DNA of 64,000 nt from a virus (IMGVR_UViG_3300033066_000811:2705-66704); one strand, 5' to 3'; positions 19,718-59,245 are shown, counted from the stretch's first letter. Notes: a model not told the origin generated them from the letters alone. A program made the numbers and translations.

Positions 19718-20028
19718 TCAATCGTGCTAATGTCATTGATCCAAAGTTTCTATCTATTTCCAGAAAAGGAAATATGATATCGGGAGAAGACAAAGTCTTT
19801 GTTTGGTTCAAAGGTAAAAGAGAACCTGTTATTGTTTCTGTAGCAGAAAAAGTCAAAGTACATTTAAGCGGAGATGGTTGTCTGTTTACCAGAATGGAAA
19901 TACTTCTGAATGAAGGACTGGTGTGGTTCCCTGATAAACAGTCCTTCGCAATTCTTGAGTTTGGTTTTGACAGGATTCACAATGAGTTTCTTCCAAGACT
20001 TGCAAAGAAATGGAATATCGAATGGTAG
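19702..20028 (+). CDS. hypothetical protein inserted between the two polymerase halves
   Basis: GGAGG RBS, ATG 19702; overlaps both neighbours. Confidence 0.6.
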   Translation: MPDKVINRANVIDPKFLSISRKGNMISGEDKVFVWFKGKREPVIVSVAEKVKVHLSGDGCLFTRMEILLNEGLVWFPDKQSFAILEFGFDRIHNEFLPRLAKKWNIEW

Positions 20029-21467
20029 TTCGTTTTGCAGGAATGAAATTCAATAGGTCCAGATTAGATGCTTACCGACTTCTCCATGAAGGTCAGACTA
20101 CTCTGGCCCACATGGAGAATGCCGGTATCAAGATTGACACAAACTATCTGAGAAAATCCATTGATAACATTGATAAGGTTATCAAAACAAGACATAGAGA
20201 ATTGTTGGACAACAATCCTGATGTGGTTGAAGCATGGAGAAGACGATACGGCAAGAATACAAATATGGACAGTGGGGATCAGATAGGTACGATTTTCTAC
20301 AAAGACTTGGGTTATGAGTCCAAGAATAAAACAGCAACAGGAAAGTTTAAGACAAACATTGAAGCTCTATCCAAGATAGACCATCCGTTTATTCGGGGAT
20401 ATCTGGAAATAAAGAAACTTAAAACAGCAACAGGAACATTCCTTAATGGATTGAGAAACGAATTGACTTCTGATGGTTTTGTCCATCCTTTGTTTCATCT
20501 GCACTTTGTTGTGACTTACAGATCGAGTTCATCAGACCCAAACTTCCAGAATCTTCCAAGTCGAAACTATGAGATTATGCAGCTTGTTAAAAGATGCTTT
20601 ATCTCAAGATTCAAAAATGGACATATAGTTGAACGTGACTTCAAGGCAGTGGAAGTAGCTGTTGCTGCCTGTTATCACAAAGACCCGACCATGCTTCAAT
20701 ACCTGAAGGATGGTTTTGACCTCCACTTGGACATGGGGTCACAGATATTCCTATGCAAAAAATCACAAGTACCAAAGAAGGCAAGATATGAGGCGAAGAA
20801 CAAGTTTGTCTTTCCTCAGTTCTATGGTTCTTTTTACGTTGATTGTGCTAGGAATATATGGGATGCTTGTCTCAATAATCCTTTTGATATCGAAGGTGTC
20901 CCGGTATTTGAGTGGTTGAAGAAACATGGAATAAAGAAACTAGGTCTGTGTGATGAAAAGACTTCTCCAAAGAAAGGAACCTTTGAGAAACACATAAAGG
21001 ACATTGAAGAACATTTCTGGAACAATCGTTTTCCAGTCTATACGCAATGGAAAAGAGACTGGTATAACGCTTACAAACAGAATGGTCTTATTCCTTTCTA
21101 TACTGGCTTTCTGGTTGAAGCGATTAACAGACGTAATGAAGTCATTAACTATCCGATCCAAGGTTCTGCTTTCCATTGTACTTTATGGTCTGCTTGTGAA
21201 ATCAGAAAGAAACTGAAGAAATATAAAATGAAGTCCATCCTGATAGGTCAAGTTCATGACTCACTTATTGGAGATTCCCCCGAAAATGAATTACAGGATT
21301 TTCTGGATATCTCGGAAGAAGTGACTTCAAAAGGATTGAAGAAACATTGGGATTGGATCATTACTCCGATTGGAACAGAAGTCGAAGTTGCTCCTGCTGG
21401 TAAGTCATGGGCAGACAAACAACCTTGGGAGAAAAAAGATGTTTGGAGACCTGTTCTCAACCATTAG
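20022..21467 (+). CDS. polA: family A DNA polymerase, polymerase domain (C-half; start uncertain, 20022 or 20043)
   Basis: LAHMENAGIKID, TYRSSSSDPNFQNLP, motif A DFKAVEV, motif B RYEAKNKFVFPQFYG, NYPIQGSA, motif C QVHDSL. Confidence 0.9.
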   Translation: MVVRFAGMKFNRSRLDAYRLLHEGQTTLAHMENAGIKIDTNYLRKSIDNIDKVIKTRHRELLDNNPDVVEAWRRRYGKNTNMDSGDQIGTIFYKDLGYESKNKTATGKFKTNIEALSKIDHPFIRGYLEIKKLKTATGTFLNGLRNELTSDGFVHPLFHLHFVVTYRSSSSDPNFQNLPSRNYEIMQLVKRCFISRFKNGHIVERDFKAVEVAVAACYHKDPTMLQYLKDGFDLHLDMGSQIFLCKKSQVPKKARYEAKNKFVFPQFYGSFYVDCARNIWDACLNNPFDIEGVPVFEWLKKHGIKKLGLCDEKTSPKKGTFEKHIKDIEEHFWNNRFPVYTQWKRDWYNAYKQNGLIPFYTGFLVEAINRRNEVINYPIQGSAFHCTLWSACEIRKKLKKYKMKSILIGQVHDSLIGDSPENELQDFLDISEEVTSKGLKKHWDWIITPIGTEVEVAPAGKSWADKQPWEKKDVWRPVLNH

Positions 21468-55598: not shown

Positions 55599-57134
55599 TT
55601 ATTTAGGATTACTGGAAGTGGAAGGTTTTCTTCCTGATTTACCAGACTTCTTTCCCATTTGTAAACCACTGAGACTTTTTACCGGAGGATTAGTTATTTC
55701 CTTGGGAACAAAGTCTTTGATTTTCTCTTCTGTGACTTTACGAGCAAGTTCTTCAGGTAAACCGAGAATCTCTGTAAGAAAGTCATATAGAGGAAAACCA
55801 AATCTAGCATTGCTTCCAGCAAACTGAGACAATGCCTGTGTTTTCTTGAGAGCAATGTCAGCTTTAGTTGCATCAGGAATGTTTGTCTTTGCCCATTCAA
55901 TTTTCATTTGCTTGGGTTTTGGACAACAACCTAGTTCAATCAGACGGCCAAAATATGTCCGAATCATTTTCGGAGAAACATATTGTTCGTTTCTGGATTT
56001 AACCTTATCATTCCAGTAAGTAGAGTCTTCCTGTGAAGCTAAGTGTCCTGCCTGTGTTCCTAAAAGAACTTTAACAGGACATCCAACTGTTCCGCAAAGA
56101 AGGACTAAAGCCTGCTCCATATGTTTGCTGGGATCCGCAATTTTTGGAGAAAGCATCGTAATGTCAACACCAACCGCAGATAAAGCCCTTTCAAGACCTT
56201 CCTGCCAGTTCTTGACCTGTTCCTTCAGGGACTCTTCGTCCATTTCTGGTCTGTTACCAGATTGCCAGACTTCTTTTTGTGTGGTGAAGGCAAGTCCCGG
56301 AAAAGCTGACTTCCAGAACATTTCAGCAGAACCACCACCGACTTTCCGAATATCCCATATATAAGGGATAAGGTTTTTTAGAATCGGAGTTGACAGATAA
56401 TCACAGTCAAGAGTTCTTTCCGCAATGTGAATAACTCTTGTCCAGTGTATTTCCTGTTTCTTGACGTTGTCTTGTGTACTGGTAAAGGTTCCTTTAGAGT
56501 CAATTGCAACAAATCTCTCTGAATCAAAGTTCACGGAATACTTTGTCGGTAATCCGTATCTAGGTGAACTTGTGTCACCTTCTGTTTCAAGAATTGTCAC
56601 ACGACTTTCATCGAATACTCGCGTATACATCAACTCAAGGTCTTTTTCAATAGGCTTGAGTGTATCTGTATTGCTGTCATATTCTCCAACAGGAGTGTCA
56701 AAACCTTTACCGTCATTGAAACCGAAGAAAATGATACTAAAGCGACCAATACCTGATGCAATGTCCGCGTTTTTGAGAATTGACCAAGGATTCAGTTTAG
56801 GGGATTCAATCCAACTGTTGACTTTTTTCTCAAAAGGCGTCGGAGTCTTTTTGTTTGTCTCATAAACAAAAGGATTGTCTTTCCAGCACTCTTGAGGATA
56901 GATTTCGATTACTCTTGTCGCAATCCCAACATAGTCATAAAGATCTCGGTAGAAGTAACAGTTGTGTTGAGACCGTTTCGGGTAATCGCAGGATTTGTCT
57001 ATGTCTTTTGTTGTACCCTGCTTACCACTTCCGTTAATCATGTCAAACAGTGTTCTTGTCATTTCTGCATTGAAAACTGCTTGAGGTATTCGTGACTTAT
57101 ACGGCTTTAAGTCCTTACTAGGTTGATTTTTCAT
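55599..57134 (-). CDS. portal protein (DUF1073-like)
   Basis: YRDLYDYVGIATRVIEIYPQECW, SGIGRFSIIFFG, IHWTRVIH, GCPVKVLLGTQAGHLAS; start placed at ATG 57134. Confidence 0.85.
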   Translation of the reverse strand: MKNQPSKDLKPYKSRIPQAVFNAEMTRTLFDMINGSGKQGTTKDIDKSCDYPKRSQHNCYFYRDLYDYVGIATRVIEIYPQECWKDNPFVYETNKKTPTPFEKKVNSWIESPKLNPWSILKNADIASGIGRFSIIFFGFNDGKGFDTPVGEYDSNTDTLKPIEKDLELMYTRVFDESRVTILETEGDTSSPRYGLPTKYSVNFDSERFVAIDSKGTFTSTQDNVKKQEIHWTRVIHIAERTLDCDYLSTPILKNLIPYIWDIRKVGGGSAEMFWKSAFPGLAFTTQKEVWQSGNRPEMDEESLKEQVKNWQEGLERALSAVGVDITMLSPKIADPSKHMEQALVLLCGTVGCPVKVLLGTQAGHLASQEDSTYWNDKVKSRNEQYVSPKMIRTYFGRLIELGCCPKPKQMKIEWAKTNIPDATKADIALKKTQALSQFAGSNARFGFPLYDFLTEILGLPEELARKVTEEKIKDFVPKEITNPPVKSLSGLQMGKKSGKSGRKPSTSSNPK

Positions 57135-57270
57135 AGACCTTCCCCTACCCCACAAAATGTTCCTAGTAATGTACCTTAAAAACCAATTGGACTCAACTAG
57201 GGGTAAGCATATTTCCAAGGGGAAAACAGGATTTTAAGAAAAATCGAATGATTTTTTCAGGAAAAGTAAG

Positions 57271-57286
57271 GTCAAAGAACATTATA
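57271..57286 (+). promoter_or_regulatory. phage motif GTCAAAGAACATTATA
   Basis: One mismatch to the 15585/22539 motif; sits at the start of the right-hand plus-strand unit. Confidence 0.6.
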
Positions 57287-57351
57287 AGAAAGTGAGTATT
57301 TTGCAGGTTCGAGTACACAACTGTTACCTTTTTCTTGAAAGGGATGGAGAA

Positions 57352-57909
57352 ATGAAGACACTTTACATTGTTCGCGGCTTGCCGGGAACTGGTCAAGACG
57401 AGTGGATTGAAAAGAAGACAAACGAGATGTTGTCAGGTGGAATGGACCTGAACTTCTCAACAATGTTTGACTTCACAGTGTACCTGAAGAAGTACAACAG
57501 TGAAGGAAAGCTACTTGTTGAAAATGAAGAACCTTACACCAACTTCACAAAAGACATAATCACTCATATTGTCAGGGAAGAAGAATCCTCCGACGATATC
57601 ATCTTTGCAAAGATGATCGGGTCGGGAGTTTGGGAATACATGACATTCCTGAAGTGTGCTAAAGTGTTCCAGTATGAGATTGCCATAATGGAAATGGTAC
57701 TCAAGACAAAACCCGGAATGCTTCCATCAGCAATCAGTACAATCAATCAGGAAGAATATGACATGGGGCAATTGCTCAAGAAACTGTCTTCTTGGGAACC
57801 AGTACCGTTATTCTACAAACGGGACAGTTTCTTTGTTGAGACTCAGTACAACCCGAAGAAAAACAAAATACAGATAATGGATACAGTTGGACAATTTATT
57901 GATAAATGA
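57352..57909 (+). CDS. AAA_33/polynucleotide-kinase-like protein with a degenerate P-loop
   Basis: LYIVRGLPGTGQDEW (canonical RGLPGSGKST); GGAG RBS. Confidence 0.5.
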   Translation: MKTLYIVRGLPGTGQDEWIEKKTNEMLSGGMDLNFSTMFDFTVYLKKYNSEGKLLVENEEPYTNFTKDIITHIVREEESSDDIIFAKMIGSGVWEYMTFLKCAKVFQYEIAIMEMVLKTKPGMLPSAISTINQEEYDMGQLLKKLSSWEPVPLFYKRDSFFVETQYNPKKNKIQIMDTVGQFIDK

Positions 57910-57915
57910 GTCCAA

Positions 57916-57950
57916 AGACCTGTAGCTCAATTGGACAGAGCATTCGCCTT
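57916..57950 (+). tRNA. tRNA-Arg(UCU), 5' exon (positions 1-34)
   Basis: Acceptor AGACCTG, D-arm GCTC-AATTGGACA-GAGC with A20, anticodon stem TTCGC, loop CTT. Confidence 0.9.
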
Positions 57951-58558
57951 TAATTGAGGAGCGTTCAGTGTGGAAGATTGAGAAGATTGTTAAAAAGGGT
58001 GACTATTTGTATGCTATTGTGCGAAACCATCCAAATAGAACAAAAATGACTATGTGTTAATGCACAGAGTAGTCATGGAAAATCACCTAAAAAGACTTCT
58101 CAAGCCCTATGAGGTTGTTCACCATAAAAACAGGAATAAACATGACAATGCTATTAAAAACCTTGAAGTGTTGACTAAATCTGTTCATATACAGCAACAC
58201 GGACTTCAAGTTAAAAAGAAAATAGCAAAATGCAAATGTCCTGAATGTGGTGTTGTTTTTCTAAGAGCATACAATCAGACCCACTTGATTAAAAAAACAA
58301 AATACAATTTTGTTTGTTGTAGTAGGTCTTGTTCTGGAAAGTTCAAAAGAAAAATACAACTTCACGGATTAACCGCTGAAATGAAAGACACCGTATCGGT
58401 GAATATCCAAAGGGTTTACTACGGTAAGCTACCGGACAATACCGAGGAAACTTCAAACAAAAGGTTCCGTAGAGACTAAACGTGTCTCACCTGAAACGGT
58501 GGTGTTATAGTCCAGCACACAACACTTAATTGTGGTCATAGTAATATGATGTGTGAAG
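57951..58558 (+). mobile_element. group I self-splicing intron (608 nt) in the tRNA anticodon, between positions 34 and 35
   Basis: Exon ends in U with P1 CCUU/GAGG (U.G); P3 AGACAC/GTGTCT; P4 TCGGT/ACCGA; P7 GACTA 58474-58478/TAGTC 58508-58512; P8 CACC/GGTG; P9 CACAC/GTGTG; terminal G 58558. Confidence 0.88.
57968..58479 (+). CDS. intron-encoded HNH homing endonuclease with a -1 frameshift at about 58045
   Basis: GAGGAG RBS plus GTG 57968: WKIEK...KGDYLY...HPNRTK; then, in the -1 frame, NDYVLMHRVVMENHLKR...EVVHHKNRNKHDNAIKNLEV, CKCPEC, CCSRSC. Confidence 0.8.
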
Positions 58559-58597
58559 CTAAGCGAACGGTTCCGGGTTCGAGTCCCGGCAGGTCTA
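58559..58597 (+). tRNA. tRNA-Arg(UCU), 3' exon (positions 35-73; CCA not encoded)
   Basis: CTAA-GCGAA-CGGTT-CCGGG-TTCGAGT-CCCGG-CAGGTCT-A; pairs with the 5' exon acceptor and anticodon stems. Confidence 0.9.
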
Positions 58598-58630
58598 TTG
58601 TCCTTTAACCCTTTCTATGGAGTGTTTGGT

Positions 58631-59245
58631 ATGCAGATTTTTAACACAGAAGTTCTTCGTGACTGGGAAAATCTTCTTTCTTCTATGACAGAAAAAGAAA
58701 GAAAAATCATGATGAAAGCTATTGTTCAGGACGAAAAGAGAAGAACTGTCAAAAACCTTATTGGAGAAAATTCGTTGAGGGAATATACAGATATTGAAAC
58801 TGAAAAACCTCTTGTAGACATCCCTGCTTCTCCAATGAAACAGAATGAAGTCAAAAACAAAACTACTCTTCCAGAAAAAGATTATATAAGTGATGCAGAT
58901 AGTTACACTTGTTTAGGAGGATCAGTCACAGGATACACCAATTTCCCTCCAATTCCATATTTCCATGATGGGAAGTCTTCTTTCTCTGGAAACAAGTATT
59001 TTGTCAGGATTCATCCAAAAGCAGAGTCTATTCCGACTCCTGTGCCGAACAATCCCGACTTAAAGACCATTGGATACTTTGTGGATGCCTATATCATTGC
59101 AAAAGCATTAGGTATCATAAGTCATCCAGTTTTTCACGCATTCAAGAAAATTGCCTATGCTGGCAAGAGAGGAGGAAAAGGATACAGACAAGACATTCAA
59201 GAAGCGATTGATGCTCTCCAACGTGAACTCGAACTGACCAAGTAA
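58631..59245 (+). CDS. protein with C-terminal DUF3310-like domain
   Basis: VDAY...HAFKKIAYAGKRGGKGYRQDIQEAIDALQR. Confidence 0.6.
   Translation: MQIFNTEVLRDWENLLSSMTEKERKIMMKAIVQDEKRRTVKNLIGENSLREYTDIETEKPLVDIPASPMKQNEVKNKTTLPEKDYISDADSYTCLGGSVTGYTNFPPIPYFHDGKSSFSGNKYFVRIHPKAESIPTPVPNNPDLKTIGYFVDAYIIAKALGIISHPVFHAFKKIAYAGKRGGKGYRQDIQEAIDALQRELELTK

Follow-up and report, generated by a model that had tools for sequence, protein, structure and literature searches.

When a phage transfer RNA (tRNA) gene is interrupted in its anticodon, it must be asked what the interrupting sequence is, whether the gene can still give a working tRNA, and whether the insert can still move. These questions are raised by positions 57,916 to 58,597 of a viral DNA stretch of 64,000 nucleotides (nt) (IMGVR_UViG_3300033066_000811:2705-66704), referred to here as the window. 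For this locus, an earlier note made from the sequence alone had proposed a tRNA-Arg(UCU) gene split by a self-splicing group I intron associated with an HNH gene. Anatomy, covariation, and homology uphold the proposal, with self-splicing as an expectation drawn from them. It is considered highly probable that the insert belongs to the bacterial tRNA lineage of group I introns, that it can be expected to splice, and that its HNH cargo has decayed.

The split gene was obtained in two ways. With introns allowed, ARAGORN calls a tRNA-Arg(tct) of 74 nt at 57916..58597, with an intron of 608 nt at 57951..58558 and the junction gcctt/...gaag/ctaag (slashes mark the splice sites here and below). Because ARAGORN in this mode also yields ghost calls, split tRNAs were rebuilt independently from the T arm, followed by 7/7 acceptor pairing, the D stem, and 5/5 anticodon-stem pairing, and the same gene was recovered. 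It consists of the following parts.

57916..57950, plus strand: exon 1 of tRNA-Arg(UCU), comprising the acceptor 5' strand, the D arm with A20, the anticodon stem 5' strand, and C32 U33 U34
57951..58558, plus strand: group I intron (well supported), 608 nt, from ARAGORN, the independent rebuild, covariation, and R1, a covariance model made from phage cores only
58559..58597, plus strand: exon 2 of tRNA-Arg(UCU), comprising C35 U36 A37 A38, the anticodon stem 3' strand, the variable loop, the T arm, the acceptor 3' strand, and A73

Once the insert is removed, the cloverleaf has stems of 7/4/5/5 base pairs and the anticodon UCU (ARAGORN). The anticodon loop reads C32 U33 U34 / C35 U36 A37 A38, so that the insert lies between U34 and C35, i.e., loop nucleotides 3/4. 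The sequence has both arginine identity elements, A20 within a D loop of 9 nt (AAUUGGACA) and C35. Exon 2 ends at A73, and CCA is not encoded. This agrees with the earlier note, which had joined two halves 608 nt apart into a perfect cloverleaf and read the loop as CU-UCU-AA with A20 and C35. The spliced product is a putative substrate of arginyl-tRNA synthetase.

The split of this tRNA-Arg(UCU) by an insert is real and beyond chance, given two comparisons. First, 24 viral contigs have uninterrupted tRNA-Arg(UCU) genes whose 25-nt anticodon arm is the same, base for base, as the arm obtained by joining the exons (25-mer junction scan), and exact removal of 57951-58558 consequently recreates an ordinary anticodon arm. 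Second, at least 15 viral contigs beside the window carry a tRNA-Arg(UCU) split at the same junction. Standard scans do miss the gene, as had been anticipated: default ARAGORN reports 0 tRNAs in the 64-kb window, and Rfam at gathering gives 0 matches in it.

The next question is the nature of the insert. The elements of a group I ribozyme that had been named from the sequence, namely the U.G splice site of P1, P3, P4, P7 (GACTA/TAGTC), P8, P9, and the terminal G, were all located in the window, and the proposed pairs there are Watson-Crick or G.U.

57948..57961, plus strand: P1; exon C-3 U-2 U-1 (57948-57950) and U+1 pair with the guide GGAG (57958-57961)
57964..58380, plus strand: P2; UUCAGUG (57964-57970) with CGCUGAA (58374-58380), the loop containing most of an open reading frame (ORF)
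58386..58487, plus strand: P3; AGACAC (58386-58391) with GUGUCU (58482-58487), 100% paired, 5/6 pairs changed on both sides
58396..58445, plus strand: P4; UCGGUG (58396-58401) with UACCGA (58440-58445), around P5
within P4, plus strand: P5; UCC (58406-58408) with GGA (58434-58436), plus a variable P5 extension
58446..58468, plus strand: P6; GGAAACUU (58446-58453) with AAGGUUCC (58461-58468), one A/G mismatch, seen in the unconstrained fold
58474..58512, plus strand: P7; GACUA (58474-58478) with UAGUC (58508-58512), a pseudoknot with P3, 100% paired
58488..58501, plus strand: P8; CACC (58488-58491) with GGUG (58498-58501), from alignment and fold
58516..58555, plus strand: P9; CACAC (58516-58520) with GUGUG (58551-58555), enclosing two inner hairpins
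58558, plus strand: terminal G (omega G), with which the intron ends at the 3' splice site

Within P1, the wobble U57950.G57959 stands at the 5' splice site and is followed by U57949-A57960 and C57948-G57961; another possible register pairs CCUU with GAGG (57956-57959). The conserved J6/7 segment GUAGA precedes P7, and one inner hairpin of P9 (58536-58549) is capped by the GNRA loop GUAA.

These helices were evaluated against a family of related introns. In a blastn search, 50,697 phage records yielded one match, covering 75 nt of the core, and no cultured relative. The match lies in the 484-kb uncultured phage LR756508.1 (L001), across the proposed P7-P8 region. L001 has a tRNA-Lys(UUU) split by a compact insert of 193 nt, which contains the matched core, and a tRNA-Arg(UCU) split by one of 175 nt, which contains a slightly diverged copy. 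A motif scan of viral contigs then placed the 16-nt J6/7-P7 motif in at least 118 of them. Among the fetched loci (window and L001 included), 18 of 131 motif sites lie in rebuildable split tRNAs. With the window counted, 16 of these 18 are Arg(UCU) genes with the junction CTT/...G/CTAA, and the others are Lys(UUU) and Thr(UGU). The second split gene of L001, the tRNA-Arg(UCU) with the 175-nt intron, has a slightly different motif and stands outside the count of 18. Viral introns measure 175-305 nt when ORF-less, with GAAA as the P2 tetraloop, and 599-653 nt when ORF-bearing. The terminal G is present in 18/18 rebuilt viral members, in the second L001 (Arg) intron, and in bacterial Arg(UCU) members.

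As for the other 113 of the 131 sites (viral loci L003-L120), which are not in a rebuildable split tRNA, they may belong to protein-coding genes, to tRNAs missed by the strict rules, or to locus ends. ARAGORN labels of Ser(GCT) for L027, L029, L035, and L101 and of Gln(TTG) for L046, L055, L097, and L110 were rejected, since the rebuild gives a split tRNA-Arg(UCU) in each case. The wrong isotypes come from an intron boundary placed one base off or from the choice of a ghost exon, and automated per-isotype counts of split tRNAs would be wrong.

Covariation was assessed on an alignment of 13 distinct members, each represented by its contiguous core between P3 and the terminal G, with the canonical group I topology imposed. 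Paired cells make up 92.7% of the alignment, compared with 33-40% when partners are slid, a percentage that is inflated because the core structure was derived from the same sequences. The double changes are free of this inflation: 26/43 core pairs are changed on both sides, against 3-10 in the slid versions. None of the shuffles (0/500) was as good as the real alignment. One P4 pair (20/64 of the alignment) is found as U-A, A-U, G-C, and C-G. P7 varies little by construction, all members having been collected through the fixed 16-nt motif; the L001 Arg intron still has a double compensatory change there (GGCCA/UGGCC versus GACUA/UAGUC). Outside the core, the P1 guide covaries with the exon: where the exon reads CUU, in the Arg and Lys introns, the guide is GAG, and where it reads CCU, in the Thr intron, the guide is GGG. 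Covariation is likewise seen in P2 of the ORF-bearing sister introns, in which compensatory changes give CUUCUAUG/CGUAGAAG, CUGUAUGUG/CACAUACAG, and UUUCAUUG/CAAUGAAA.

The relationship extends to bacteria. A looser motif scan of bacterial genomes gave at least 120 loci. Rebuilding of the listed loci revealed Ile/Met(CAU) genes split as CUCAU/...G/AA in Burkholderiales and others, and Arg(CCU) genes split as UUCCU/...G/AA in Alphaproteobacteria, which are the two classical settings in proteobacteria. It also gave at least ~16 tRNA-Arg(UCU) genes split exactly like that of the window, one of them in a complete Neobacillus genome. Model R1 matches these introns from end to end of the model, with 120-147 bits for Arg(UCU), 44-51 bits for Ile(CAU), and 37-55 bits for Arg(CCU), part of each score stemming from the fixed motif. 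The same model finds no second copy of the ribozyme core in the window. An intron of tRNA-shaped or protein-spliced (bulge-helix-bulge) type was considered and rejected, the insert having a full group I core and no tRNA-like ends. Taken together, anatomy, covariation, and homology provide good support for assigning the insert to the group I introns of the bacterial tRNA-intron, IC3-like lineage. The IC3 label is taken over from the Ile(CAU) and Arg(CCU) introns, which are assigned to that class in the literature and which the insert resembles.

In addition to the two limits of the alignment given above, several results weigh against this assignment or against the expectation of splicing. The Rfam model RF00028 (Intron_gpI), a group I model of the kind that the earlier note had suggested for a check with Infernal, finds no match in the window at gathering, nor at E<=10 on sub-windows of 901 nt and 241 nt; the compact L001 introns give no match at E<=1. 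The unconstrained minimum free energy (MFE) fold of the ORF-deleted window intron contains P6, P8, and P9 and lacks P1-P5 and P7. No intron-less allele of this phage lineage, which the earlier note had proposed to look for, was met: the 25-mer junction scan gave unrelated tRNA-Arg(UCU) genes. No RNA runs containing the locus were listed.

The silence of RF00028 on the window is taken as a sensitivity limit, since even the closest bacterial relatives of Arg(UCU) type get low scores from this model or none. It gives 54.5 bits, above gathering, for the Polynucleobacter Ile(CAU) intron (L123). Full-length matches below threshold are obtained for the Neobacillus Arg(UCU) intron (L145; 33.1 bits, E 7e-5) and the Methylorubrum Arg(CCU) intron (34 bits). 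The tie of the window to this curated family would therefore be only transitive, through the R1 relatives L123 and L145. Likewise, with MFE folding recovering P6, P8, and P9 alone, the structural argument rests on comparative data.

A portal-protein search for relatives of this phage found none. Two apparent intron-less joints in DNA contigs were rejected, their replaced letters and unlike flanks marking them as uninterrupted tRNA-Arg(UCU) genes of other organisms. A wastewater contig (run X2) follows exon 1 to the splice site and then enters a different intron start at 57952 (TTAACTTGGAGCCTCTATTGGGAAACC...), which implies that a similar tRNA with another intron variant coexists in that sample.

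Being a group I intron is one matter and being able to splice is another. The locus could be a tRNA pseudogene with a splicing-dead relic, the phage relying on the host tRNA-Arg(UCU). Such decay would fit with the loss already suffered by the homing endonuclease gene (see below), with the missing Rfam group I match, and with a local hairpin, CACCG-UAU-CGGUG (CACCGUAUCGGUG) at 58390-58402, that rivals P3 and P4 in the thermodynamic fold. This hairpin, however, is missing from most sister introns. Moreover, the core pairs of the window are canonical, its conserved joining segments are intact, and its exons give a perfect cloverleaf. The window scores 169.6 bits against the family model, though it is itself among the seed sequences of that model. 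Finally, AGA is the commonest arginine codon of the phage (390/824 Arg codons, 47%), and a working tRNA-Arg(UCU) would thus be useful to it, which is the argument that the intron still splices. A dead relic is therefore regarded as unlikely. On the minus strand, the hairpin at 58390-58402 was scored as a terminator-like site; a promoter/terminator scan of 57100-58900 gave nothing usable.

Another alternative is that the intron derives from group I and has become unable to splice alone, requiring a chaperone or maturase from host or phage, possibly the former HNH protein. In the window, the GAAA tetraloop of P2 is replaced by a loop of ~400 nt, with the loss of one likely tertiary contact, and single-sequence folding prefers alternative structures, as such dependence would lead one to expect. 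The GNRA-capped hairpin of P9 is nevertheless kept, and the locus encodes no intact maturase-type protein. It is also established that self-splicing in vitro is common among phage group I introns whose peripheral loops contain ORFs (review PMC3984707). Dependence on a protein is accordingly given little probability, and an intron that splices by itself remains the preferred interpretation.

The third question concerns mobility, which depends on the gene located in the P2 loop.

57968..58060, plus strand: HNH ORF piece 1, MWKIEKIVKKGDYLYAIVRNHPNRTK from GTG 57968, then out of frame to a stop
58042..58046, plus strand: frameshift site, a run of five A, one short of the six needed to stay in frame
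58045..58479, plus strand: HNH ORF piece 2, NDYVLMHRVV...HHKNRNKHDN..., containing the HNH_3 domain

The earlier note had assigned an HNH enzyme to the intron. The gene stands: HNH_3 (Pfam PF13392) is detected in the 141-amino-acid (aa) ORF at 58054-58479 with E 8.5e-9 and 35.4 bits (cut-off 24.8), within the 35-54 bits obtained for sister introns. The intact enzyme does not. Sister introns have one intact ORF of ~160-200 aa (in L032, for example, at 592-1143) that starts with ATG TGG AAG in the P2 5' strand, takes up the P2 loop, and continues across the core as far as P7 or further. The pieces in the window are collinear with these proteins (alignment A1) and lie in two frames, with one A missing. 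Contigs from two other studies (wastewater and river metagenomes; X2 record 3 and X3 record 13), both low in depth, cross the A run without an indel, which indicates that the break is real in the population. In addition, the window has V before the last histidine where intact sisters have E. Sister introns are broken at other places, by a frameshift in L046 and a stop in L097, and scattered breaks of this kind are the usual decay pattern of homing endonuclease genes.

It can still be asked whether the endonuclease is made and the intron mobile, through a -1 slip on A-AAA-A at 58042-58046 or as a truncated protein of 141 aa starting at 58054 or 58060. After a slip from AAA 58043-58045 to AAA 58042-58044, the pairing of tRNA-Lys would again be perfect, and with AAT as the following codon the sister reading ...TK-ND... 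would be restored. The downstream piece retains HNH_3 without further stops, and the same sequence occurs in contigs of three runs from three studies, of which X1 may be the source of the window itself. On the other hand, the site is no classical X-XXY-YYZ heptamer, since re-pairing is impossible for ACA, the codon in the P site. No stimulatory element was seen, and no search was made for one. Neither 58054 nor 58060 is preceded by a Shine-Dalgarno sequence. Together with the decay pattern of L046 and L097 and the V-for-E difference, these points make continued production improbable. The HNH gene of this phage is most likely a decaying remnant and this copy of the intron is probably immobile. 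Homing into other tRNA genes, as envisaged in the earlier note, is unlikely for a copy with a frameshifted gene whose break recurs in two other studies.

The position of the gene has a further consequence. The GTG start codon (57968) lies within the P2 5' strand, and the GGAG guide of P1, 6 nt upstream of it, doubles as the Shine-Dalgarno sequence of the intron ORF. Owing to these overlaps, ribozyme folding and ORF translation would compete. At the other end, the last ~30 codons of piece 2 also form P2', P3, P4-P6, and P7, the stop TAA (58477-58479) lying partly in P7.

Other members of the family carry a different nuclease. A PDDEXK_5 (PF11645) gene takes the place of HNH in viral L101 (1047-1496) and L112, where it lies just upstream of P7, in the P6 loop, and in at least seven bacterial introns (L184, L189, L206, L215, L221, L238, and L240). 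PF11645 is presumably the family of I-Ssp6803I. The HNH-in-P2 form was found only in viral contigs among the matches listed. With HNH in P2 and PDDEXK_5 in P6, two nuclease families have evidently entered one ribozyme lineage independently of each other, and at different loops. A PDB sequence search with intact sister HNH and PDDEXK_5 proteins returned 0 matches.

From these features, a course of splicing and of past homing can be inferred. The pre-tRNA would fold into P1-P9, and an exogenous guanosine would attack after U57950, which is held in the U.G wobble by the GGAG guide. The terminal G58558 would then occupy the G-binding site, and the exons would be ligated to CUU-CUAA. The expected product is a tRNA-Arg(UCU) reading AGA. 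The intron was formerly mobile, in all likelihood, through an HNH homing endonuclease whose gene ran from the P2 5' strand to P7. Loss of one A from this gene would have left a fixed, immobile intron that must still splice.

The source record is a 66.7-kb viral contig with an estimated completeness of 87%. It comes from a tailed phage, with genes for a portal protein, head protease, tape measure protein, DNA polymerase, and helicases. The DNA polymerase ORF at 20010-21467 (485 aa) matches only positions 834-1244 of a PHROG profile of 1445 positions, and the polymerase may be split or in several pieces. The split tRNA-Arg(UCU) is the only tRNA gene detected in the 64 kb.

This last observation invites a more far-reaching interpretation, in which the intron would act as a gate on the only detected tRNA of the phage. 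The gate could work in two ways. First, before splicing there is no anticodon loop, and the precursor could be invisible to host anticodon-loop nucleases, so that the supply of AGA-reading tRNA could depend on guanosine triphosphate (GTP)/Mg status or on infection stage. Second, the overlaps of Shine-Dalgarno sequence with P1 and of start codon with P2 could couple residual translation, by the -1 slip, to unspliced RNA. If true, the HNH-in-P2 form would be a phage-adapted sublineage of the bacterial Arg(UCU) intron. Such a gate is considered very improbable, and the expectation of an intron that splices and has lost its mobility is retained in what follows.

How much of this is new can be judged from the known systems. 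The classical IC3 introns, in Azoarcus-type tRNA-Ile(CAU) and Agrobacterium-type tRNA-Arg(CCU), were reportedly described by Reinhold-Hurek and Shub in 1992. They share with the window the J6/7-P7-J7/3 segment GUAGAGACUA.ACG and the P3-P9 architecture, but they stand after position 36 (loop position 5) rather than 34, have no ORF, and reside in bacterial chromosomes. A later study extended the bacterial tRNA settings of group I introns from 4 to 21 (Williams 2020, bioRxiv 10.1101/2020.01.27.920355), and the two classical settings appear there as Ile2.5Ug and Arg.5Ug. Its seed alignment also contains Arg.3Ug, Lys.3Ug, and Thr.3Ug members, among them Rba190.Arg.3Ug with the P1 CUUC-AAUA-GGAG. 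The study surveyed genome assemblies of bacteria and archaea, and phages are nowhere mentioned in its text (10.1101/2020.01.27.920355). The bacterial Arg.3Ug introns resemble that of the window closely: they interrupt tRNA-Arg behind the third loop nucleotide (CUU/...g/), have U at -1 and end in G, and agree with it in P1 design (CUU/N... GGAG) and in the core. The cargo is different, since the bacterial ORF-bearing copies, among the matches listed, have PDDEXK_5, inferred to lie in the P6 loop, while the window has HNH in the P2 loop.

Endonuclease-bearing introns provide a second comparison. I-HmuI is said to be the HNH endonuclease of an intron in the SPO1 DNA polymerase gene. I-PfoP3I is the HNH endonuclease of a group I intron of the cyanophage Pf-WMP3 (PMC3428280). 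The introns in phage protein genes are like that of the window in residing in a phage genome and in having a group I ribozyme with an HNH-family gene in a peripheral loop and an ORF that runs into the core. However, they interrupt mRNAs and are mostly of subgroup IA2 (PMC11835236), whereas the window has a tRNA intron of the bacterial lineage. In bacteria, the Synechocystis tRNA-fMet intron encodes I-Ssp6803I (Bonocora and Shub 2001, cited in PMC3984707) and is likewise an anticodon-loop group I intron with its own homing endonuclease gene. The window differs from it in having HNH_3 in the P2 loop, in a broken gene, and in the host tRNA and site.

For phage tRNA genes the record is shorter. 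According to a 2014 review, the phage group I introns then known were all in protein-coding genes (PMC3984707), although tRNA genes are numerous in phages. Unclassified introns in huge-phage tRNAs were reported in 2018-19. Devoto et al. (10.1101/356790) described 'enigmatic' introns in Lak megaphage tRNAs, stated as the first reported in phage tRNAs, and tested them against Rfam, giving no class. Like the window, Lak phages have tRNA genes interrupted in the anticodon region, a comparison made by description only. The huge phage LR756508.1 also has split tRNAs, two of them, interrupted by compact members of the intron family of the window. Its Lys(UUU) and Arg(UCU) genes lie 130 nt apart (L001:1391-2041), each split after U34 by an ORF-less intron, with an uninterrupted tRNA-Glu between them. 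A full-length HEARO RNA (Rfam RF02033, 144 bits, E 1.7e-31) at L001:2189-2413 lies ~150 nt downstream of the split tRNA-Arg(UCU).

Nowhere in the literature searched was a phage tRNA gene described as having a group I intron, nor such an intron as having an HNH gene. The belief of the earlier note that a phage Arg(UCU) intron with HNH is undescribed therefore holds in part: no such paper was found, but the site is catalogued in bacteria and introns in phage tRNAs have been reported. The ribozyme class and the Arg.3Ug insertion site are already known from bacteria. Two points are apparently undescribed in the literature searched, the membership of phage tRNA introns in group I and an HNH cargo in P2.

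Taken by itself, the locus is a modest case, with class and site known in bacteria and the endonuclease of this copy in all likelihood dead. Its meaning lies at the level of the family and of phage tRNA biology. Phage tRNA genes, too, harbour the bacterial tRNA-intron lineage: at least 16 viral contigs carry a split tRNA-Arg(UCU), and related introns interrupt tRNA-Lys and tRNA-Thr. As cargo, members have either HNH in the P2 loop or PDDEXK_5 in the P6 loop, and some have no ORF. Because default tRNA finders and Rfam miss such genes, phage tRNA complements are under-counted: this phage would score as tRNA-free, yet it carries the tRNA that reads its commonest arginine codon. Endonuclease-bearing introns common to phage and bacterial tRNA genes are, moreover, a plausible route of exchange between phages and their hosts.

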